DNA of 52,963 nt, the filler included, from Spirochaetales bacterium (lineage in GTDB: Bacteria; Spirochaetota; Spirochaetia; Treponematales; UBA12059), in NCBI GenBank assembly GCA_016928955.1. It is 2 parts of 2 records of this genome, joined end to end, with 100 filler letters (N's around TTAATTAATTAA, not from the genome) between each part and the next. Parts side by side here need not be neighbours in the genome. Positions count along the whole stretch, not along the records: positions 1 to 27,861 come from JAFGJV010000003.1; 1 more part is not named here. One strand, written 5' to 3'. The notes beneath the pieces are model-generated. The model worked only from the letters and a program-made list of their open reading frames with translations, did not search any database and was not told the DNA's origin. Both the position numbers and the translations under genes were made by a program. Below, in pieces: positions 17,037 through 27,961 of the stretch (within the stretch, counting starts at the first letter, position 1; every line of letters begins with the position of its first letter).

Positions 17037-17915
17037 TCAAATATCTATGCCAAAGACTGCGCGGACCACCAGTCCCACCAGGAAGGAGAAGGCCGACACG
17101 CCCAGGCTGATCCCGGCCATTTCCAGGAAACGGTGCTTGAAATTCAAGTCTTTGGCCACCGCCAGGTAAAAGTTGAATCCCGCGATAATGAGGACGGCCG
17201 AAAAAAGGGTGATGCCGAGCGACACGAATATCCACGACCCGTCTCGCGGCAGGACCAGGTAGGGAAGGACCAGGATGACCACGGTCATCAGGTAGGCCGC
17301 GCCCGTGTAGATGGCCGAGCGCGCCGCCTTGGGATCTCCCTCCGCCCGTCCGGCCAGGAAGTCGGACGCCGCCATGGAAAAAGCCGCCGCTATTCCCGTG
17401 ATGATGCCGGATATGGCCACCAGGGAGCCGTTACGCACCGCAAAGGTCAGGCCGGCGAGCGTGCCGGTCAGTTCCACCAACGCGTCGTTCAGCCCAAGGA
17501 CTATGGAGCCCATGTACTCCAGTCGCTCCTCCTCGATCATGCCGAGCAGGGTTTCCTCATGGCTTTCCTCTTCCCGGCCCATGGCCTCGGCCTCGGGCAC
17601 CAGATGGGCCACAGCCGAATAGCCCTCGGACGCGTCCTCCTCGGCCCGTTCCATTAACTTGAGCGCGAAGGTCAGGCCCAGTATCCGCGCGGCGAGGTAA
17701 AAGAACTGCACGCGGGCCCGGTAGGGGGCCTCGTCCCGGCCGGACAGGCCCCGCCAGAACGCGTAGTGCTCGCGCTCGGCGGCCGCCATGTCGGCAAGCA
17801 CCTTGGCGTTGCCAGCGTCCTTGGTCACCTTGGCCAGCCTGGCGTACAGGATGGCTCCGGTGATTTCCTCGCGCTGGAAGCGCGCCACTTTTCGGGCCAA
17901 TGCTGCGTCCATCAT
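17037..17915 (-). CDS. Ferritin/rubrerythrin-like + VIT1/CCC1 iron transporter fusion
   Basis: ExxH motifs (EREH, EESH) in the N-terminal half; VLGLNDALVE and AFSMAAS in the VIT1 half. Confidence 0.9.
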   Translation of the reverse strand: MMDAALARKVARFQREEITGAILYARLAKVTKDAGNAKVLADMAAAEREHYAFWRGLSGRDEAPYRARVQFFYLAARILGLTFALKLMERAEEDASEGYSAVAHLVPEAEAMGREEESHEETLLGMIEEERLEYMGSIVLGLNDALVELTGTLAGLTFAVRNGSLVAISGIITGIAAAFSMAASDFLAGRAEGDPKAARSAIYTGAAYLMTVVILVLPYLVLPRDGSWIFVSLGITLFSAVLIIAGFNFYLAVAKDLNFKHRFLEMAGISLGVSAFSFLVGLVVRAVFGIDI

Positions 17916-19423
17916 GTGTCGACCTCTTTCCGGCGGGACCCGCCCGATGTTATGCCCAGTTTCTTCATCCTGCTTTGCAGGGTGCTCGGTTTCATGCCCA
18001 GGAGTTCCGCGGCCCCTCCCGTTCCGTACAGCCGCCCATGGGAGCGCACAAGGGCGTTTTCTATGGCCTCCCGCTGGGCGTCCGCCAAGGTGCGGGGATG
18101 GCCGCCGGCCTTTGGCGGGGGGCTGTCGGCGGGTGCCGCCTGAATACCAAGGTGGACAGGGCTGATCATGGTGCCCCTGGCCAAAATGGCCGCCCGCTCT
18201 ATTACGTTCCTGAGCTCGCGGACATTGCCAGGCCAGCTCAGGGTATCCAGGATGGCCGCCGCATTGGCGTCCATGGCCACCGAGCCAAATCCCGGCCGCT
18301 TCTGTATCTCGGACAGGAAGAGCTCGGCCAACAGCAGGGCGTCGCCCGGTCGTTCCCGCAGGGGCGGAAGCCGTACCGGAAAAACGCCCAGGCGGTAATA
18401 CAGGTCTTCCCTGAAGCGCCCGGACCTGACCGCGGCTTCAAGGTCCACGTGCGTGGCCGCCACGATGCGAACGTTGACACGGACCGTGCGTTCGCCCCCG
18501 AGTCGCTCCAGACTGCCTTCCTGGAGTACCCGCAAGAGCTTGGGCTGAAGCTCAAGCGGCAGGTCCCCTATCTCGTCAAGAAAGAGCGTGCCCCCGTCGG
18601 CCAGCTCGAAGCGTCCCCTGCGCTGTCCTGACGCCCCGGTAAAGGAGCCGCGCTCGTGGCCAAAGAGCTCGCTCTCTGCCAGGCTGGGAGCCAAAGCGGA
18701 GCAGTTGAGGGCTACGAACGGGCCGCCTGCCCTGGCGGACAGGCGGTGCACGCTGCGTGCCGCCAGTTCCTTGCCCGTGCCCGTCTCGCCCAGGATGAGT
18801 ACCGGCACGTCGGCGTCGGCAGCCAGCCTGAGGCTTTCAACCGCCCGTATCCATGCCGCCGACGAGCCCACAAGTCCGGCTATCGGCTCATAGCCGGGCG
18901 TAAGCAGGGCGTTCCGTTGGCGTACCAGGTCTGCGTTCGTGATCTGGAGCTTGGCCCGCTCGTCGGACTGGGCAACGCTGAGCGATATGAGTGTGGCCAT
19001 TGAGCCTATGAACCTGACCAGGCCTGGCGTAAAGCGGCCGCAGCTCCGGTGGTCCAGGGTAAGAAGGCCTATGCGCGTGCCTGCCACTGACAGGGGCGCC
19101 ACCAGGCACGAGTGGCCGTGGGGCAGGTCTATAATCCCCTCGTAGGTGTCTACATGGTCCTCGTCCTCGGAAAAGAGGTGCGGTTCGCCGCGTTCGAGGA
19201 TACTGGCCAGGTCGCCGCGGTCGCGGAGGTTGATGGAGTATCTGGAAAGTCGCTCGTTGGCCAGGGGGCCGGCAGCCTTGCGCACGGAAAGTATGTTCCT
19301 GCCGTCCAAGCCCAGCACCACGGCCAGCTCGTATTCGATCAGGTCGCCAAGGGCAGACAGGATCAGTTCGAGGATGCGTTCAGGCTCCAGCGTATCCACC
19401 GGTATTTCGGTGTTCACCGACAT
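17912..19423 (-). CDS. GAF-domain sigma54-dependent activator (NorR/FhlA-like)
   Basis: GETGTGKE, ESELFGHERGSFTGA, LFLDEIG, WPGNVREL, Fis-type HTH; GAF motifs DTYEG..HSC..LTLD. Confidence 0.92.
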   Translation of the reverse strand: MSVNTEIPVDTLEPERILELILSALGDLIEYELAVVLGLDGRNILSVRKAAGPLANERLSRYSINLRDRGDLASILERGEPHLFSEDEDHVDTYEGIIDLPHGHSCLVAPLSVAGTRIGLLTLDHRSCGRFTPGLVRFIGSMATLISLSVAQSDERAKLQITNADLVRQRNALLTPGYEPIAGLVGSSAAWIRAVESLRLAADADVPVLILGETGTGKELAARSVHRLSARAGGPFVALNCSALAPSLAESELFGHERGSFTGASGQRRGRFELADGGTLFLDEIGDLPLELQPKLLRVLQEGSLERLGGERTVRVNVRIVAATHVDLEAAVRSGRFREDLYYRLGVFPVRLPPLRERPGDALLLAELFLSEIQKRPGFGSVAMDANAAAILDTLSWPGNVRELRNVIERAAILARGTMISPVHLGIQAAPADSPPPKAGGHPRTLADAQREAIENALVRSHGRLYGTGGAAELLGMKPSTLQSRMKKLGITSGGSRRKEVDT

Positions 19424-19450
19424 ATCGCTGAGAATACCGAACTATCGGTG
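19397..19450. promoter_or_regulatory. Three tandem palindromic boxes CACCGA-N4-TCGGTG (putative enhancer/operator)
   Basis: CACCGGtattTCGGTG at 19397, CACCGAcataTCGCTG at 19415, TACCGAactaTCGGTG at 19435; one mismatch each. Confidence 0.75.
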
Positions 19451-19459
19451 AGTTGGCAA
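19431..19459 (-). promoter_or_regulatory. Sigma70-type promoter of the activator, probably leaderless
   Basis: Minus strand reads TTGCCA-N17-TATTCT-N7-ATG with no Shine-Dalgarno. Confidence 0.65.
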
Positions 19460-19468
19460 GCACAAACG

Positions 19469-19631
19469 AGTGTAACGAAGCTTTGATGTTCCTGAATTGT
19501 GGATGCGCGCTTGAAGGCTCTGGGATGTTGCGTACCAGGTACCATGGGTTTTCTTCCATATTGTGCTCTGATACGCTCAGTTTCCCGGTCCCTAGCGGCT
19601 CCCTGACCGGACATCAAAGCTTCGTCACACT
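19469..19631. mobile_element. Putative 163-bp MITE-like element
   Basis: 21-bp terminal inverted repeats with one mismatch (AGTGTAACGAAGCTTTGATGT / ACATCAAAGCTTCGTCACACT). Solo copies of the end occur at 15519 and 20546. Confidence 0.6.
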
Positions 19632-19675
19632 ATAAAAATACCATTCCCATCTATTTTTGCACAAATTAACCAGAT

Positions 19676-19691
19676 TGGCACGCTATTTGCT
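19676..19691 (+). promoter_or_regulatory. Sigma54 (-24/-12) promoter of the peroxiredoxin
   Basis: TGGCAC-GCTAT-TTGCT matches the consensus; an AT-rich stretch precedes it. Confidence 0.9.
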
Positions 19692-19742
19692 CTTATATTC
19701 TCGTGCCCAGAGAGGCGCGATCATATATACAAGGAGCATTCC

Positions 19743-20453
19743 ATGGACAACGAAAACCAGGCCGTAACCCTTCCGCGCATCGGCGACAAGGCCCCCGCGT
19801 TCAAAGTCGTGACCACCCAGGGCGAGATCGACTTTCCCAAGCAGTACGAAGGCCACTGGGTCATCCTGTTCAGCCACCCCGCGGACTTCACGCCCGTGTG
19901 CACCTCTGAATTCATGACCTTTGCCCACCTTGAGCCCGAGTTCGAGAAGCTGAACACCAAACTGGTTGGCCTGTCGGTGGACGGGCTGTACAGCCACATA
20001 GCCTGGCTCCGGACCATCAAGGAGAAGATCGAGTACCGTGGGATGAAAAATATCGAGGTGAAGTTCCCCCTGATCGAGGACATCACCATGGAAATTGCCA
20101 AGAAATACGGCATGATCCAGCCCGGCGAGTCCGGCACCAAGGCCGTTCGCGCGGTGTTTGTCATCGACCCCAAGGGCATCGTCCGCACGGTCATCTACTA
20201 CCCGCTGTCCATGGGCCGCAACTTTGACGAAATGCTACGCGTCATCCAGGCCCTGCAGACCGCGGACGCGTTCAATATCGCCACTCCCGCCGACTGGCGC
20301 CCCGGCGACGACGTGATCGTCCCGACGGCCGGCTCATGTGGCGTGGCCAAGGACCGCATGGACGGCAAGCAGGAGGGCGTCACCTGCCATGATTGGTTCT
20401 TCTGCACCAAAAAGATTTCCAAAGACGAGGTTATGAAGAAGATCCTTAAATAA
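19743..20453 (+). CDS. Peroxiredoxin (Prx6/archaeal-type AhpC/TSA)
   Basis: FSHPADFTPVCTSE, VRAVF, GRNFDE, TPADW, C-terminal CHDWFFC. Confidence 0.96.
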   Translation: MDNENQAVTLPRIGDKAPAFKVVTTQGEIDFPKQYEGHWVILFSHPADFTPVCTSEFMTFAHLEPEFEKLNTKLVGLSVDGLYSHIAWLRTIKEKIEYRGMKNIEVKFPLIEDITMEIAKKYGMIQPGESGTKAVRAVFVIDPKGIVRTVIYYPLSMGRNFDEMLRVIQALQTADAFNIATPADWRPGDDVIVPTAGSCGVAKDRMDGKQEGVTCHDWFFCTKKISKDEVMKKILK

Positions 20454-20597
20454 GGGGCCTGTCCGGGACGAAAGGGCGGGGACACCCCTCCCTTCCTTCC
20501 CGGGCCCTTTCATCCTTCCCCGCGCGTCCGCCCCAATCGGGGCGGACATCAAAGCTTCGGCACACCAGAGCGGGCACCTTCCCGCTGCACTTGAGCC

Positions 20598-22061
20598 TCA
20601 GCGCCGATCCGGCCTGGACGAGTATTTCCTGGTTTTTATCCTTGCCCTCATGGCCTTGGCCTTTTTCAGCAGGGAGTCGTCGAACACCACCACGGTGCCG
20701 GCCAGGTTGAGCACGTCCCCCGATTCCAGCCGGCGCCGGGTTACTTCCTTGTTGTTCACGGTGATGGGCGTGTCCGACACCACCGTGTACGCGTCCTTGG
20801 CTTCGTCGAACAGGATGGTGGCGTGGCTGGACTTGAGCGACGGATTGCCGGCTATGCTCACGTCCGCGTCCGGCGCGGCGCCTATCACGGTCTGCGGCCC
20901 GGCTATCTCAAAGAAGCGTGTCTGTTGTCCGTGGGTCCCGAATAGGAGGCGCACGCCGGCCTTGTCGGTCTCGCGCTCCAGGCGCAGGAGAACCAGGGCC
21001 AGCCACAGGAGGAAGGCCGCGGCTATCAGGAACAGGTACCACAGCTCGGGCCGCACCGTGTTCTGGCCCAGGATGGTGCCCGCGTAATAGTGCCGCACGG
21101 CCGTGAGCCGTCGGCCGTCCGCACTCAGGGCTTCCACCTTGACCCAACGCTTTTCCCCGCGCTCCATGCCGGCCTTGTAGTCAAGCGCCAGCTCGGACAA
21201 CACGTCGGCCCGTATGGTCCTGTATATGGACGTCAATTCGTTTTCGTTCATGGCGTCAAAGGCACGGCCTCCGGAGCCTTCAGCCGTGTCTCCGAGCCGG
21301 GGGTCCTTCTGCGCGCCAAAACGTACGGCGTATATGGTGACGCCATCCCGTACGGCCCGCTCTATCACCGCTTCCGGGGTGGTCTGGCGCGTGCCGGTCT
21401 CGGGGTTGGGTTTGCCGCTCATCTGGGCGTAGGGGAAATTCTCGCCGTCAGACAGCACGATCAGGACGCGGCGGCCCGGTTCCAGGGCAAAGCTCTCCAG
21501 GGCGCGTTCCATGGACAGGTACAATTCCGTGTATGCGTCCGCCGGCGCGGGCTTGGACAGTTCGTCCAGGGCTCGTGCCGCCTCGTTGGCCTGGCCGCCC
21601 GGGGGCACGGCGCTCCAGTAGCGGGTATTGAACACGGCCATGCCCACGGTGTCCTTGGCGGACAGCTCGGCCAAGAAGGCGCGGGCGGCTGTTTTTGCGC
21701 GCTCCACGCGGAGGGCCGCCAGGTCATCCGTATCCGCACCGGCCATGTCCGTCCACATGCTCCCTGAATTGTCCACCAGCAGGAAGAATCGTATGCCCTC
21801 GTCGGCGTTCTCCGTGCTGGACAGCCCCGTGATGGGCCGGGGATCGTAGTCCACTCCGTCGCCAGATTCCCACACCTCAAGGCTGGGGGCACCGGTGGCC
21901 GGGTCGGTGGCCAGGGGCGGCGTGGCCAGATACAGCCGGGTTTCCTGGCTGGACAGGAGCCGTTCCGTGCCTATCTGCGTGATGGACAGGCCCTGGGCTC
22001 CGGCAAAGCCTGCGGCAGCCAGGGCCAAGAGCATGGCTAACGTGTATTTGATCGCGCGCAT
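20598..22061 (-). CDS. Exported vWA domain + TM + cytoplasmic FHA-fold protein
   Basis: Signal peptide (MRAIKYTLAML..), MIDAS DNSGS, LSDGEN, one TM, FHA-like tail (VIG..D....HATI...LESGDVL). Confidence 0.85.
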   Translation of the reverse strand: MRAIKYTLAMLLALAAAGFAGAQGLSITQIGTERLLSSQETRLYLATPPLATDPATGAPSLEVWESGDGVDYDPRPITGLSSTENADEGIRFFLLVDNSGSMWTDMAGADTDDLAALRVERAKTAARAFLAELSAKDTVGMAVFNTRYWSAVPPGGQANEAARALDELSKPAPADAYTELYLSMERALESFALEPGRRVLIVLSDGENFPYAQMSGKPNPETGTRQTTPEAVIERAVRDGVTIYAVRFGAQKDPRLGDTAEGSGGRAFDAMNENELTSIYRTIRADVLSELALDYKAGMERGEKRWVKVEALSADGRRLTAVRHYYAGTILGQNTVRPELWYLFLIAAAFLLWLALVLLRLERETDKAGVRLLFGTHGQQTRFFEIAGPQTVIGAAPDADVSIAGNPSLKSSHATILFDEAKDAYTVVSDTPITVNNKEVTRRRLESGDVLNLAGTVVVFDDSLLKKAKAMRARIKTRKYSSRPDRR

Positions 22062-22114
22062 GGTTGCGTACCTCGTTCCTTTCCCCCGTTCGCCCGGGGC
22101 GGCGCTGGGGGCTT

Positions 22115-23008
22115 TCACGCAAAGTATCCGTATATGAATTTGGCCTTGCCGATGGCAAGGACGTCTTCCGCCTTCAGGGACCTCCTTGAGGGCGCTTCGT
22201 CATTCAGGAGCACCCTGGCATCGGCCTTGGCCGCCTCCACGCTCACCTTGCCGCCGTTCAGCCGGACCGTGGCGTGCACGGGCTCCACGCCGGGATAGCC
22301 CTTGAGCACGATGTCGCATTCGGGAGCCGAGCCTATGCGCAGGGCCTTGCTGAGCACCACGTAATGCTTGCCCTTGAGCGGCCCGTTGAGCAGGAGGAGG
22401 GTGCCGGCGGAAAAGCGGTTCTCAAAGACCAGGTAGGCCACCGCCAGGCAGAGCCCGAAAATGGCCAGGCCGGCCAGGAGCGACGCAGGTTCACCTGGAA
22501 AGAAATGCGACAGGGCGGACAGGGCCGTTCCGCCCAAAAGGCCGCCCAAAAGGCCGCCCAAAAGGCCCACAAGGAGCTTGCGCGACGAGCGGGCTCGGAG
22601 ACCTTCTGTCAGGGCAACAAAGAGACCGATCAGGGTCCAGGCCAGGCCAGAGGCCACGGCCAGGCCAACGCTGTTGCGGGCGCTGGCGCTTTTCCACAGG
22701 GCCGAGCCGGCCGCGAACAGGAAAAGCTGCCCGGCCAGCACGCCCACGGCCCCGGCTCCGGCCCCAAAGGCCGCCCCGAACAGGAAGCCCTTGAAGGCTT
22801 TTGGCCTGGACGACACGACCACGCCCTCAAAGGAGCCGAAAAAGGCCCCAAAGACAGCTCCCAAGAGCACGCCCTGGGCCAGCGAGTACAGGAGGTAGCT
22901 CGGGAAGGCGGGCTGCCAGTATTGCAGTGCCAGGAGGATGGGCCACAAGGCCAGGGCTCCCAGGAGGCCGAACACGGCCATGAATACGCGTTTCAGTGTA
23001 AGTGACAT
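22115..23008 (-). CDS. Gly-rich multi-TM protein with C-terminal FHA-fold domain
   Basis: About six hydrophobic helices, then LLNGPLKGKHY..IGSAPECDIVL..HA..LKAEDVLAIG. Confidence 0.8.
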   Translation of the reverse strand: MSLTLKRVFMAVFGLLGALALWPILLALQYWQPAFPSYLLYSLAQGVLLGAVFGAFFGSFEGVVVSSRPKAFKGFLFGAAFGAGAGAVGVLAGQLFLFAAGSALWKSASARNSVGLAVASGLAWTLIGLFVALTEGLRARSSRKLLVGLLGGLLGGLLGGTALSALSHFFPGEPASLLAGLAIFGLCLAVAYLVFENRFSAGTLLLLNGPLKGKHYVVLSKALRIGSAPECDIVLKGYPGVEPVHATVRLNGGKVSVEAAKADARVLLNDEAPSRRSLKAEDVLAIGKAKFIYGYFA

Positions 23009-23062
23009 ACTGTCGCTCCTTGACGTTCAGTTCACGACGGACGCGTCCGTCCCGGCCGCGTG

Positions 23063-24661
23063 TCAGCGGGCCGGGCGGAGGCTGGCCAACAGCGTAAGCC
23101 TGTCCTGGTCCGGGGCTATGCGAAGAGAGAAAGCCTGCGGCGCGTAACCGTCCGCGTACACGCGGAAATGCCGTACGGCGCCGGTGGTAAGCCAGCCCGC
23201 GGGCAGGGCGCCCTGGGCCAGCCATATTCCGTCAACCAGCACGGACAGCTTGACGTGTTCCAGCTGGGCACCGGTCAGCGCGTCCCTGGCCGTGGCCGTT
23301 ACCCTGAGGGGCCGTGGGGCTTCCTCGTCCAGGCGGTAGTGGAGGGTGATGCCCTCCTTGCCCTCGGGTTTGGCCAGCGCGGGCAGCTCGCAGCTCTCCC
23401 AGAGCACGCTGCCGCCCACGGCCAGCTTTATCCTGTAGGCCCCCGGCGGCAGAAAGAGATCCTCCGAGGCGAAGGAATGGTAGGGGTCGGCGTCCTCTGT
23501 TGGGGCGACCTCAAGCTCGACCGGCGACACTTCCAGCTCTGGCAGTTCGTCGCCGTCGTCTATGAATATCCTGGCCCGCAGGAAGATGTCGTCGGCCGGC
23601 CGGCCATCCCTGGGCACGCGCAGCTCCAGCCTGAGGAGGCCGTAGGAACCGGGCAGTATCCAGCGGTGTATGTAGCCCTTGGTCCACGCCGCGTAGGCGC
23701 CGGCGACCAGGGCCAGCGACAGGGCGGCCAGGGCGGGCACCAGGAGGTTGCGCCTGCGGCCCCGGGGATAGTGGGGTTCCTCGGCCAGGGTACCCTTCAT
23801 GAGGCCGGCAAGGGCCTCGCGCACGGGCTCAGGTTTCCAGCGCTTGAGATGGGCTTCCACCCGCCTGATGACGGCGTCCACTTCCTGGGGGCGCTTGGCT
23901 GGGTTCGGCCGCATGAGCTTGCGTATCAGCTTGTCCACGAACGGAGACACCTTGGCGTTGAGCTTGGCCGCGCGCCTGAACTTGCCCTTGCGCACCATGA
24001 TGAGCGTCTCGGCGGAGAAATTGCCCGGGTAGGGCTTTTTGCCGGTGACCATTTCGTAGAGCATGACGCCCAGGGCGTATATGTCCGCTCGCCTGTCCAC
24101 GTTTTTGGAATTCTCTATTTGTTCGGGGGGCATGTAGCAAGGCGTGCCCAGGGTCATGCCTTCCTTTGTCAGCCCCGAGTCGTCGTCCTCCTCGAACGTG
24201 GCTATGCCGAAATCGGCCAGCTTTACGTCGCCCTTCCTGGATATCAGGATGTTGGCCGGTTTTATGTCGCGGTGAATGACGCCCTGGCCATGGGCGTAGC
24301 TCAGGGCCTTGCAGGCGTCCCGCAGTATGGTCAGCGCCAGCTCGCAGGACAGGAAGCGCTGTTTCTTGATCAGCTGGTCCAACGACATGCCGTCCACGTA
24401 TTCCAGGACCATGTAGTTGGAATTGCCTTCCTTGAAGTGGTCAAACACGCGGACGATGTTTTCGTGCTTGAAGTCTATGAGTATGCGGGCCTCGCGCTTG
24501 AAGCGCTCGGCTATGGCGGAGCTGCCGCGTATGGTCAGCTTCTTGAGGACCACGTAGCGGCGCAGGGTGGGGTGGATGGCCTTGAGCACCGCGCCCATGC
24601 CTCCCCGCGCCACCAGGGATTCTATTTTGTACTTGCCGATAAACTCCGGCAATTCAGCCAT
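23063..24661 (-). CDS. Hanks-type Ser/Thr protein kinase with TM and extracytoplasmic C-terminal domain
   Basis: RGGMGAV, VVLKKL, HRDIKPANIL, DFG, GTPCYMPPE, DIYALG; a TM follows the kinase domain. Confidence 0.95.
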   Translation of the reverse strand: MAELPEFIGKYKIESLVARGGMGAVLKAIHPTLRRYVVLKKLTIRGSSAIAERFKREARILIDFKHENIVRVFDHFKEGNSNYMVLEYVDGMSLDQLIKKQRFLSCELALTILRDACKALSYAHGQGVIHRDIKPANILISRKGDVKLADFGIATFEEDDDSGLTKEGMTLGTPCYMPPEQIENSKNVDRRADIYALGVMLYEMVTGKKPYPGNFSAETLIMVRKGKFRRAAKLNAKVSPFVDKLIRKLMRPNPAKRPQEVDAVIRRVEAHLKRWKPEPVREALAGLMKGTLAEEPHYPRGRRRNLLVPALAALSLALVAGAYAAWTKGYIHRWILPGSYGLLRLELRVPRDGRPADDIFLRARIFIDDGDELPELEVSPVELEVAPTEDADPYHSFASEDLFLPPGAYRIKLAVGGSVLWESCELPALAKPEGKEGITLHYRLDEEAPRPLRVTATARDALTGAQLEHVKLSVLVDGIWLAQGALPAGWLTTGAVRHFRVYADGYAPQAFSLRIAPDQDRLTLLASLRPAR

Positions 24662-24678
24662 GATAGATCTCCTTAGGA

Positions 24679-25695
24679 TCAGCGAGGCTCTGACAACTCG
24701 CCGCTCAGATCCCGTAGTTCGCCTATGTCCCGCTCGGGCTTGAAGTCCCGGTCGGGCAGGGCCCAGGCCACCACGAATTTGCCCGGGTTGTGGATTTGCA
24801 GATGATACCCGGATGAGCGCTCCCGGTACAGGCCCGATATGACTCGGTGGCCGGTAAAATAGCGCGGCCGCTTGACGTCGGGCAACATGCGGGACAGGAG
24901 GCTGGTCACGGAGCCGGGCTCCGCCGCCCCGTTGTCCGTCCAGGTAAGGCCCAGGATGACCTCGTTGGACAGGCGGGCGTTGACCAGCTCGGCGTCCGAA
25001 TACGGCCGCTCGGGCTCGGCGTGCGACGCCAAAAAGCGCGCGCCCACCGCGAACAGCGGCAGGGCCTTCTCAAAGGCGGCGTAGCGCTCCAGAAAATCGT
25101 CGCCATAAAAGCGTTCCAGGTACGAACGGACCATCTCGCCCTCGAGCACGAATTTGCGGAAGGGATGGTTGCCGTCGCCCTCCTCGTTGAGCACGTTCTC
25201 GTGGTTGCCCTTGAGAAAGTGGAAATGCCCGGGGTAGGCCAGCTTGGCCAGCATGACCATTTCCATAAGGCCCATGCTCTCGGCCATCTCCTGGTCCATG
25301 GCGTCGCGCTTGCGCCAGCCGCCCAGGAATTCCAGGTATGCTTCCTGCCAGCGGTCCAGGGCCCGGCTTTCGGCGTGAAAACCGTCGCCCAGGCAGAGTA
25401 TCTGGAGGGCTCCCGCGGCAAGGGCGTCCCGCACGGTACCGCCCTCGGGCAGGGGGCTCTCCATAAGGCTGATGAAAAAATCCCTGCGCGCGTGGAGGTC
25501 GGGCACCACGATGGTAGGCAACCCCGTGTCCAGGCGTATGAGCCCGCCCGGCAGGCCCCGGATGTCCTGTGGCCTCAGGTCGGGCGGCTCTGAGGACAGG
25601 ACGTCCACAGCCGCGTCCGCCAGGGACGCGTATTCCCCTTCCGGAGGCGGTTCCGGCCGCCTGAATGCCCTGATGGTCGCGTCGCGAGCGTTCAT
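24679..25695 (-). CDS. Calcineurin-like metallophosphoesterase (putative PPP-type protein phosphatase)
   Basis: PDLHAR, LGDGFH, LKGNHE, SHA, FTGH motifs. Confidence 0.85.
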   Translation of the reverse strand: MNARDATIRAFRRPEPPPEGEYASLADAAVDVLSSEPPDLRPQDIRGLPGGLIRLDTGLPTIVVPDLHARRDFFISLMESPLPEGGTVRDALAAGALQILCLGDGFHAESRALDRWQEAYLEFLGGWRKRDAMDQEMAESMGLMEMVMLAKLAYPGHFHFLKGNHENVLNEEGDGNHPFRKFVLEGEMVRSYLERFYGDDFLERYAAFEKALPLFAVGARFLASHAEPERPYSDAELVNARLSNEVILGLTWTDNGAAEPGSVTSLLSRMLPDVKRPRYFTGHRVISGLYRERSSGYHLQIHNPGKFVVAWALPDRDFKPERDIGELRDLSGELSEPR

Positions 25696-25714
25696 GCCTG
25701 GCTGATCCCCGGCA

Positions 25715-26242
25715 TCAGCCGATGACCGTCTTATTTACCTCGACAAAATCCTCGGCCAGGTCCTGGCTGACCTGGGTGAGCAGGGCTTCCTCTTCCTCCG
25801 GCTGGAGCTCGTCCTGGGCCACCGCGATCTTGTAAATGGGCGAACTGGTCTTGATGGGTCCTTTGGCAAAGGCCGCCGGCTCGTCCACTTCCAGGTCGGC
25901 CGACAGTTCGGACGCGTCGTCGCTTGCAGCCGGGGGAACATCCGCCCTGAGGCCTATGGACGTGTATTCGCAGTGCCGTGCGCCGTCGCTCAAGGGGCCG
26001 ACGTTCAGGATGGAACCCGAGTAGGTCAGGGCAAGCGCGCCCCGTTCCTCTGCCCGGCCAAAGAACGACACCTCCACCAGCTTGTTGTCCTCAACCGCCT
26101 TCTCGAACAGGTTCTTCTTCTCGAGCCAGGCTGCGGCCATGCGCTCGTAGCTGTCGTCGGTCAGCGGAAGGCCAGAGGTCTTGGCTATCTGCTTGAGGTG
26201 GGCCTGGATTTCCGGACTCAGGGTATTGAAAGACTCCATCAT
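25715..26242 (-). CDS. Hypothetical acidic protein, paralogue of the N-terminal domain of 26498-27394
   Basis: AAGGAGG RBS before ATGATG; shares W.EK..LF, RGA..LTYSGS, EY.SI.LRADVP and SS..Y.IAV with its neighbour. Confidence 0.85.
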   Translation of the reverse strand: MMESFNTLSPEIQAHLKQIAKTSGLPLTDDSYERMAAAWLEKKNLFEKAVEDNKLVEVSFFGRAEERGALALTYSGSILNVGPLSDGARHCEYTSIGLRADVPPAASDDASELSADLEVDEPAAFAKGPIKTSSPIYKIAVAQDELQPEEEEALLTQVSQDLAEDFVEVNKTVIG

Positions 26243-26497
26243 ACGCCTCCTTGATGGACGGGCGGCCGGCCGCGCGCCGTGCGCGGATCGTATGACCGAC
26301 CCCTTCATCAGCCTGATTCATTCTCGGCCCGGACGCAAGACCCAGGCCGCCGCGCCCGCTCGTTGTCCCAACAAGGGCCAGCAAGCGCATCATAGAATAT
26401 GCACGAGCCTGAATGAATTATCAACGGAAAAAAACGGAAAAAAAATTATTTTGGTAAAAAAGCTGAAATTCGGGTTATACTAGGGACGGAGGGACTG

Positions 26498-27394
26498 ATG
26501 GAAGCGAGCGCCTACGAGCTTTTACCCCAAGCGATACGTCTGCAACTGGACGCTTTATTGGCCGACGCCGGCAAGGCCGGGGATCAAGCCGCCCGGGACA
26601 ACCTGGCGTCTATTTGGTCAGAAAAATTCAAGCTTTTTACCGCACAGATTTCGGCCCTGGGCATGCGGGAGATAGACCAGCTGGGGCCGGAAGACCCCCG
26701 GGGGGCCATACTCCTCACATATTCCGGATCCCTCATCAGTCTGGGACCCCGGCGCGGCAAGGACCGCTGGCTGGAATACGCGTCCATCAAGCTCAGGGCG
26801 GACGTGCCCGAGCTGGTCCGGGGCGACAAGATCAACCTGTCGGCACCCGCGCTCAGGGACCAGGCGGCCGTTTTTGAAGGATCGCCGCTTAAGCGCTCGT
26901 CAGCCCTGTACCGCATAGCCGTCTGCCCCGAGGGCATCAGCCCGGACGAGCAGGAACGCCGCGTGCGGGAAGCCACGGTGTACCTGACCAACGGCTTCAT
27001 CAAGCTGAACAAGACCCTGTCTCTGTCTGGCGCGGAAGACGTGGACCAGTTCACGTCCAAGGCCATCATCAACTACGTGGCCAAGAAAAACGGAGTGACG
27101 CAGATTCTGGCCCGGGGGCTCATAGACGACTACCTGTCCATGATAGAAACCGGCATACTGCTGGGCGAACGGGTGTCCGTGGGCAAACTGGGCAGCGCCA
27201 GCCTCCGGTTCCAGGCCGCCCGCAAGGCGCGCCTGGTCAAGAACCTCAAGACCGGTGAGGACCTGCTGGTGCCGGCCAAGCCAGCCATGATGGCCCCGCG
27301 CTTCAAGTTTTCCCAGGCCCTGAAGGACAAATGCACCAGCCTAGATCCCACCTATCTGGGTCAGGACGACGAGGGTGACGACGACGACGATTGA
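26498..27394 (+). CDS. Unknown domain fused to a C-terminal HU/IHF-like DNA-binding domain
   Basis: GGAGG RBS; C-terminal [10 protein letters not shown]...[21 protein letters not shown]...[11 protein letters not shown] is HU/IHF-like; acidic tail. Confidence 0.82.
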
Positions 27395-27624: not shown

Positions 27625-27861
27625 ATGAGTCTTCCCGAATTTGAAGCGCTTGGCCTCGCGCCGGCGTGCGTCAAGGCACTGGCCCACGAGGGCTACGAGT
27701 GCCCCACTCCCATCCAGGCGGCGGCCATACCGCCCCTTCTGGCCGGCAAGGATCTCCTTGGCTGCGCCCAAACAGGCACCGGCAAGACCGCCGCCTTTGC
27801 CCTGCCCACCATACAGCGCCTGTCGCAGTCTCCAAAGCCCAAGGCCAAGCGCTCGGCGCGG
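27625..27861 (+). CDS. DEAD-box RNA helicase (RhlE-like), 5' part only, cut by the contig end
   Basis: Q-motif GYECPTPIQ and motif I AQTGTGKT. Confidence 0.9.
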
Positions 27862-27961
27862 NNNNNNNNNNNNNNNNNNNNNNNNNNNNNNNNNNNNNNN
27901 NNNNNTTAATTAATTAANNNNNNNNNNNNNNNNNNNNNNNNNNNNNNNNNNNNNNNNNNNN
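27862..27961. other. Artificial contig-joining spacer
   Basis: 100-nt N-run with central TTAATTAATTAA, which gives stops in all six frames. Confidence 0.97.

Follow-up and report, generated by a model that had tools for sequence, protein, structure and literature searches.

A conserved, co-inherited and apparently undescribed Ser/Thr signalling module of spirochaetes, combining a membrane kinase, a phosphoesterase of PPP-type fold, degenerate FHA proteins and an HU-fused domain

The actinobacterial pknAB-pstP-fhaAB locus is a close known relative, in its design, of the genes considered here, and FHA domains bind phospho-Thr through the motifs GR, SxxH and S/TxNG. Other described systems, as far as the available text of the respective papers goes, share particular components with them. 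The GlnH-GlnX-PknG-OdhI/GarA system comprises an outside binder, a transmembrane (TM) transducer, a Hanks-type kinase and a small FHA protein whose N-terminal tail carries a Thr (PMC9769921), OdhI being phosphorylated at Thr14 (PMC2784874); Sulfolobus possesses ArnA (FHA), ArnB (vWA), the kinase ArnC and PP2A, where a canonical FHA domain binds the vWA protein at its phosphorylated C-terminus (PMC7472852, PMC6509490); the TerY-P operons encode a vWA protein, a PP2C phosphatase and a Ser/Thr kinase ending in a zinc ribbon or OB fold (PMC10542128); and some GAP1-N2 and MoxR-vWA ternary conflict systems include a membrane vWA protein, kinase, phosphatase or FHA effectors (PMC7159879). Here we describe a six-gene locus at positions 20598–27394 of a 52,963-nucleotide stretch of DNA (the window) from the Spirochaetales bacterium assembly GCA_016928955.1, which is supported as a conserved, co-inherited and apparently undescribed Ser/Thr signalling module. 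A reading made from the sequence only had not recognised the combination as a named system, and the literature search agrees with it: no description of this system or of any spirochaete kinase/FHA operon was found in the texts searched, the supplementary tables, which could list such neighbourhoods, being outside the scope of the search. The available parts of PMC7159879 and of bioRxiv 10.64898/2026.10.19.760177 deal with different vWA or FHA systems, built around GTPases, MoxR or ParA, and those of PMC8787120 contain no mention of Treponema.

Positions 1–27861 of the window represent contig C58 of a 2.87 Mb genome that is 99.5% complete. All six open reading frames (ORFs) of the sequence-only reading are present as it had stated, five on the (−) strand, separated by −4 to about 55 bases, and a divergent one on the (+) strand. 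The distal (−) gene (20598–22061; ORF 20598–22118, with ATG 22061 as the likeliest start) encodes, according to Pfam, hydropathy and homologue motifs, a protein with an N-terminal hydrophobic stretch predicted as a signal peptide, a β-rich segment, a vWA domain (PF13519, E = 7e-9) predicted to lie outside the cytoplasm, one TM segment and a degenerate cytoplasmic FHA domain (E = 8.8e-6). The next (−) gene (22115–23008) encodes six to seven hydrophobic stretches, interpreted as about six glycine-rich TM helices, and a degenerate C-terminal FHA domain, whose best Pfam score is to the YscD cytoplasmic domain family PF16697 (E = 2.7e-13). It is preceded by the (−) genes of a Hanks-type Ser/Thr kinase (23063–24661; Pkinase E = 1.5e-55) with one TM segment (about residues 304–326) and an outside domain without a known family, and of a metallophosphoesterase (24679–25695), which Pfam matches under its cut-off (Metallophos E = 0.0023). 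The promoter-proximal (−) gene (25715–26239; ORF 25715–26308) has no Pfam family; its likely start at ATG 26239 gives a 174-residue protein, as in homologues, consisting of a stand-alone α/β domain (the orphan domain) with a C-terminal tail of the pattern N[KRQ]T-hydrophobic-hydrophobic. The divergent (+) gene (26498–27394) encodes a paralogue of this domain (34% identity over 170 residues, E = 3e-30), followed by an HU/IHF domain (PF00216, E = 2.5e-12, residues 186–279) and an acidic tail.

A profile built from 40 orphan-domain sequences matched 134 GTDB stretches, and the best 80 of these were used for locus counts. The gene of the stand-alone domain is found in 79 of the 80. Among the 53 loci with at least 6.5 kb of downstream sequence, the kinase gene is present in all 53, the multi-TM and vWA genes in 52 each and the phosphatase gene in 46, which bears out the co-occurrence anticipated by the sequence-only reading. 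Among the 68 loci with at least 1.5 kb upstream, the HU fusion is adjacent and divergent in 52 and occurs anywhere in the locus in 57, so that it is a conserved partner as expected. Since the gene order is kept across GTDB loci, the six-gene arrangement is not due to chance; the loci are related and were picked by similarity to the stand-alone gene, and the counts therefore measure conservation and not independent origins. The divergence of all six proteins is concordant over 44 loci (r 0.92–0.98), the G+C content of the operon equals that of the genome, and mostly one locus is found per genome. The locus flanks are variable housekeeping genes, and no MoxR ATPase, GTPase, other ATPase, secretin, pilin, flagellar or metabolic gene was found among the conserved neighbours.

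The orphan domain was found in 57 of 401 sampled Spirochaetota genomes; several large families gave no match (0/75, 0/38). Setting aside seven genomes with only distant or differently fused copies leaves 50 genomes with the close pair, of which 49 encode the multi-TM protein and 47 the phosphatase, compared to 50 and 87, respectively, among all 401. The named homologues all belong to Spirochaetota, save a few labelled only "bacterium", one Magnetospirillaceae metagenome-assembled genome and one sediment metagenome entry. The locus is complete in a cultured strain, Alkalispirochaeta alkalica DSM 8900, and a phosphatase orthologue is named in Spirochaeta thermophila (Spith_1457). One genome contains a second, divergent cluster of kinase, multi-TM-FHA and vWA-FHA genes (L185:1–3964).

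The phosphatase is more widespread than the orphan domain, being present without an orphan-domain match in 35 of the 87 phosphatase genomes, and the loci of such genomes disclose a smaller core. Among 20 phosphatase loci from genomes lacking a close orphan domain, the 12 that belong to one family (f2) all have the order soluble FHA, phosphatase, kinase, and six of the eight others have the phosphatase followed by the kinase. The core is thus a triad of soluble FHA, phosphatase and kinase, to which the vWA, multi-TM and orphan-domain genes are an add-on. The small soluble FHA, encoded beside the kinase in relatives, is encoded elsewhere in this genome, as two tandem copies on contig C7 (L181:5724–6513; PF00498, 81.5 and 74.9 bits) adjoining an aminoacyl-tRNA synthetase-like gene, and it lies within 13 of the 68 loci with sufficient upstream sequence. 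The sequence-only reading had called the locus self-contained; this description does not hold, because the canonical reader is on another contig and the FHA domains of the membrane proteins are degenerate. All 32 homologues of the soluble protein (about 114 residues) keep the phospho-Thr-binding Arg, Ser, His and Asn, and 31 of them have a Thr in the N-terminal tail, followed by mostly hydrophobic residues. In a sample of 371 genomes (taken as G000 up to G370), it was found in 76, including 67 of the 81 phosphatase genomes of that sample. Its layout, a small stand-alone FHA domain with an N-terminal Thr tail, is that of GarA and OdhI, and it matches their structures with E = 6e-14 to 7e-13, although other FHA proteins score equally. 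Orthology to OdhI was rejected, the NF041660 model giving 38–50 bits against a cut-off of 200.

The kinase belongs to the Hanks type (PF00069, 188.9 bits against a cut-off of 31.7), with HRDxKPxN and DFG in 107 of 107 homologues and the activation-loop pattern in 89. Neither Pfam nor PDB searches revealed a significant match to its ectodomain. Assignment to the PknB/Stk1 PASTA kinases was rejected, as the NF033483 score (259.5 against 450) comes from the kinase domain only and searches of 20 and of 31 ectodomains found no PASTA domain. The genome has a single further Pkinase gene, which is unlinked to the locus and encodes a divergent kinase with membrane segments (contig C36, 22123–23544).

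The calcineurin-like phosphoesterase had been proposed as the phosphatase partner, and structural predictions are consistent with this, as is the search of the genome for PF13672, which found no PP2C. A profile of the phosphoesterase gave weak matches to PP1, BSU1 and PP5 sequences (best E = 0.0018); the predicted structure (pLDDT 93) matched PP1 in a Foldseek search (E = 3.6e-12), and a VIA comparison with 48,161 chains placed PP5 at the top (Z-score 25.2, root-mean-square deviation (rmsd) 3.1, 263 aligned residues), with RdgC, calcineurin and PP1 at 22.6–24.3 and bacterial relatives lower (Shewanella phosphatase 17.8, lambda phosphatase 15.7, ApaH 14.3). Of the PPP signature GDXHG/GDXXDRG/GNHE (available text of PMC2887360), it has one-third: GNHE is present in 113 of 113 homologues, and in place of GDXHG and GDXXDRG all 113 have PDxHxR and GDxxH (GDxxD occurs anywhere in only two), along with the further motif GHR. 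Residues D66, H68, D104, N164, H165, H225 and H283 are invariant. These positions presumably correspond to the metal ligands and the general acid of PP1. By its predicted fold, the enzyme is assigned as a variant of the PPP family and not as a canonical member, and a role as a protein phosphatase is plausible.

The sequence-only reading had also pointed out two membrane FHA proteins. Both domains do keep the FHA fold signature, but the Arg, Ser and Asn that bind phospho-Thr are missing: in the multi-TM protein GR was found in 1, SxxH in 5 and S/TxNG in none of 60 homologues, and in the vWA protein none of the three motifs was found in any of 58. Since the binding residues are absent, these domains are unlikely to read phospho-Thr. 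All 60 homologues have an intact metal-ion-dependent adhesion site (MIDAS) in the vWA domain, with the metal ligands DxSxS, Thr and Asp. The multi-TM and vWA proteins are fused in frame as one ORF in 9 of 80 loci, and a further protein, P0159, has the vWA-TM part joined directly to the orphan domain and an additional helical domain, which ties the membrane part to the orphan domain; no metagenome contig was found for P0159, and a search for longer fusions, which reached only proteins of 745–2125 residues, found none. The TM helices of the multi-TM protein weakly resemble glycine zippers. The same glycine-rich domain also occurs elsewhere with an N-terminal zinc-ribbon-like CxxC pair, without FHA and unlinked to a kinase (L183:9438–10283, L184:2056–2877), and the vWA gene of one genome is followed immediately by a PP2C-like gene (L188:6819–7604).

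AlphaFold 2 modelling of the orphan domain predicted an α/β structure (pLDDT 91, pTM 0.86) with a pair of helices at the N-terminus, about eight strands (β core at about residues 52–146) and one long helix at the C-terminus. Pfam searches with 40 members gave no consistent family, NCBIfam and PADLOC no match, PDB sequences nothing better than E = 0.1, Foldseek searches against PDB and viral sets nothing at E = 0.001 and the ESM Atlas no usable match; the profile showed no similarity to FHA, and the best VIA result was a Z-score of 4.5 (rmsd 4.0, 88 aligned residues). These blank searches, made with the whole domain, do not prove a new fold. Among 1.84 billion representatives, 141 relatives were found. 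They show four layouts: the domain by itself, joined to HU, joined to an unnamed helical domain, and distant stand-alone copies. The residues kept across distant members are mostly polar (S76, R88, Y92, R98 and S133 in the window protein). In the stand-alone copies, the Thr of the tail motif (T171 in the window protein) is present in 119 of 120, with both following residues hydrophobic in 112. The unnamed helical domain, of about 120 residues, is found fused to the orphan domain and alone (L122:9442–10464, L125:9130–10095, L129:8152–9102, L190:3885–4280, L191:4020–4418); the fusion proteins tested gave no NCBIfam match to it, and no copy was found in this genome. Some distant copies of the orphan domain adjoin folP- and ClpB-like genes, and the domain may reach outside Spirochaetota, since the metagenome contig L193 differs strongly in gene content. 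A 28-residue match on a viral contig (L001) was rejected, as the profile did not confirm it.

The C-terminal part of the divergent protein meets the threshold of the HU family PF00216 (47.3 bits against 22.4) and scores under the NCBIfam cut-offs for HU and IHF; across the family (n = 36), the DNA-binding arm position of Arg is kept in 34 and that of Pro in 30. A complex prediction for the stand-alone domain with residues 1–180 of the fusion (score 0.00, mark 0.32) argues neither for nor against their binding. Contig C37 encodes another HU-like protein (L182:4169–4633), whose N-terminal tail is rich in Lys and Ala and which shares 34% identity with the HU portion of the fusion. The intergenic region (26240–26497) contains, at 26396–26450 on the (−) strand, a σ70-like promoter found by a promoter scan (TTGATA, 17 nt, CATATT) that points into the operon and overlaps an AT-rich 37-bp element (26414–26450). 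This site scores 40.4 bits, compared to 20.3 for the next unrelated one; no other site in the genome is strong, and a regulon was therefore not found. Because the −35 hexamer falls inside it, the element may be a mere promoter with an upstream A-tract; the HU fusion could bind it. A looser motif, YGGAAW, is present in 38 of 63 intergenic regions against 20.2 ± 3.0 in shuffles and, having been chosen post hoc among related sequences, is a lead only. The G+C-rich leader between the predicted promoter and the stand-alone gene (26240–26395) exceeds that of close relatives by about 135 bases. The low-depth coverage by contigs from four metatranscriptome runs, all of one study, does not differ between genes, flanks and intergenic DNA and therefore does not demonstrate transcription of the operon.

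Taken together, the data lead us to favour, by a modest margin over doubt, a spirochaete-specific Ser/Thr phosphorylation relay of two layers, in which we infer every interaction and substrate from sequences and models. In the core layer, the membrane Hanks kinase would act as writer, the PPP-type phosphatase as eraser and the small soluble FHA protein as reader. The added layer would consist of a membrane complex of the vWA-TM and multi-TM proteins with their pseudo-FHA domains, together with the orphan domain, alone and fused to HU. On the outside, the vWA MIDAS and the kinase ectodomain would meet a ligand or envelope component, and the pseudo-FHA domains would hold the kinase or the orphan domain; the activated kinase would then phosphorylate the Thr tails of the soluble FHA protein and of the stand-alone domain, tail phosphorylation would alter the state of the HU fusion on DNA, and the PPP-type enzyme would reset the system. 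The parts of this proposal differ in strength. That kinase and phosphatase share protein substrates is very probable. The vWA and multi-TM proteins probably form one complex, which would sense a periplasmic or envelope ligand through the MIDAS and modulate the kinase, with the pseudo-FHA domains as phosphate-independent scaffolds. A common kinase site is suggested because the tail pattern of the stand-alone domain matches that of the soluble FHA protein, and we regard it as an even question whether the kinase phosphorylates this Thr-hydrophobic-hydrophobic motif at the N-terminus of the one and the C-terminus of the other. More tentatively, the stand-alone domain might pair or compete with its HU-fused paralogue, phosphorylation changing DNA binding, including that at the common divergent promoter. 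It is a bolder and rather doubtful idea that the orphan domain has a new fold and serves as a phospho-Ser/Thr switch or reader of a new kind, with S76, R88, Y92, R98 and S133 as a phosphate pocket replacing the disabled FHA domains, and that it would couple the receptor kinase and the PPP phosphatase directly to a nucleoid protein as the main envelope-to-chromosome Ser/Thr pathway of free-living spirochaetes.

A number of observations weigh against the relay. The HU fusion of the window has Leu at the arm position of Pro, its tail is less conserved across the family (Thr in 23, Ser in 7 of 36) and its gene is unlinked in several genomes (e.g., L136, L138, L144), while the 37-bp element is confined to 19 of 69 intergenic regions, those of the closest relatives, and is explicable as a promoter. 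The tail Thr of the stand-alone domain is at the end of a predicted helix, and distant copies of the domain have no kinase nearby (L112–L121, L193:987–1766). Ten module genomes lack a soluble-FHA match, assuming the 371-genome sample as above; the module genomes G210, G139 and G186 have no canonical FHA match, contrary to a strict triad, and G029, G139 and G186 gave no phosphatase match. Since the phosphatase motifs depart from GDXHG and GDXXDRG, its substrate could also differ.

Other explanations of the same genes have to be considered. The persistence of the triad without the remaining genes, the layout and structural matches of the soluble FHA protein and the control of such a kinase by a periplasmic binder and a TM protein in Corynebacterium (available text of PMC9769921) would suit a metabolic switch of the PknG-GarA/OdhI kind, with the small FHA protein acting on an enzyme, and the orphan domain and the HU fusion as no more than regulators of operon expression or loose attachments. 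The score to the OdhI model is nevertheless far under the cut-off, other FHA proteins do equally well in the structural comparison, the three genomes without a canonical FHA match carry the module, and metabolic genes are missing from the conserved neighbours; we consider this switch unlikely. It is yet less probable that the vWA and multi-TM proteins build an envelope or motility machine serving adhesion, a channel, or cell shape and the periplasmic flagellum, with pseudo-FHA rings like those of secretion systems and the kinase and phosphatase controlling assembly. The affinity of the multi-TM FHA domain to the YscD family, the zipper-like helices and the control of Sulfolobus motility by vWA, FHA, kinase and PP2A proteins (in the available text of PMC7472852 and PMC6509490) are in line with such a machine, but no ATPase, secretin, pilin or flagellar gene is a conserved neighbour and the HU fusion points to DNA.

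The sequence-only reading had also mentioned a conflict module, which has become less likely. Here, kinase activation would lead to nucleoid shutdown through the HU fusion, as an anti-phage system resembling TerY-P or PD-T4-6. The kinase domain matches the PADLOC models PD-T4-6 and mad6 (E ~1e-80), TerY-P, with its anti-phage variants (available text of PMC10542128), likewise joins a vWA protein, a phosphatase and a kinase, and the distribution is patchy; the PADLOC matches, however, span the generic kinase domain only, no other gene matches, and the proteins tried gave no match in 72,556 plasmid and 50,697 phage records. With these results, the housekeeping flanks and the divergence of the six proteins in step, to which the unaltered G+C content, the mostly single locus per genome and the lack of an effector can be added, signalling is likelier than defence, and we place the latter lowest of the explanations considered.

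The surroundings of the operon add several observations. It is adjoined at 17037–20453 by oxidative or metal stress genes, for a 1-Cys peroxiredoxin, a GAF σ54 activator and a rubrerythrin-VIT1 protein; the peroxiredoxin gene adjoins the operon in few loci only. In three RNA runs, contigs link position 20568 back to 19606 with 10 extra letters, flanking the peroxiredoxin gene, where a tandem copy, a circle or a strain variant is possible. On the other side, a DEAD-box helicase gene (27625–27961) is truncated by the end of contig C58, followed by a run of N and a short linker; the bases past about 27960 come from another contig and therefore are not proven neighbours of the operon.

The module offers three new things: a domain without a family or clear fold match, a bacterial phosphatase whose predicted structure is nearer to PP1 and PP5 than to the solved bacterial PPP-like enzymes and whose gene lies beside that of its kinase, and a possible direct link between a receptor kinase and an HU protein. 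The cultured carrier A. alkalica and the soluble parts, producible in Escherichia coli, make the system approachable.

Compared to its closest counterparts, the locus shares with the GlnH-GlnX-PknG-OdhI/GarA system the general plan of an outside binder, a TM transducer, a Hanks kinase and a small FHA protein with a Thr tail. It departs from that system and from pknAB-pstP-fhaAB in having a membrane kinase with a novel ectodomain and no PASTA match, a PPP-type phosphatase instead of PP2C and a putative vWA sensor, while its pseudo-FHA domains, orphan domain and HU fusion have no counterpart in either. The same four domain types, including a PPP-family phosphatase, make up the Sulfolobus Arn proteins; unlike those, the vWA domain here is predicted outside the cytoplasm, fused through a TM segment to a degenerate FHA domain, and its genes are organised as one operon together with an HU fusion. 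The likeness to TerY-P lies in an operon that combines a vWA protein with a protein phosphatase and a Ser/Thr kinase; the PPP-type phosphatase fold, the receptor-type kinase, whose TM segment and outside domain come without zinc-ribbon or OB-fold matches, the membrane-anchored vWA domain and the absence of Ter or restriction neighbours led us to reject membership. Membership in the MoxR-vWA or GTPase ternary systems was rejected as well, their defining GTPase or MoxR ATPase not being among the conserved neighbours. The phosphatase resembles eukaryotic PP1, PP5 and calcineurin over 256–270 residues, including the N-terminal helices (Z-scores 22.6–25.2), and shares with them GNHE and six invariant Asp, His and Asn residues at the presumed metal-ligand positions, but its identity to these enzymes is 13–19% and two of their three signature motifs are replaced. 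The HU fusion, in turn, has a C-terminal 90-residue domain of the HU/IHF family and differs by its N-terminal fusion to the orphan domain. Overall, the locus represents a real, conserved and apparently undescribed variant of kinase/phosphatase/FHA signalling, with an unusual phosphatase and a domain that has no clear fold match.

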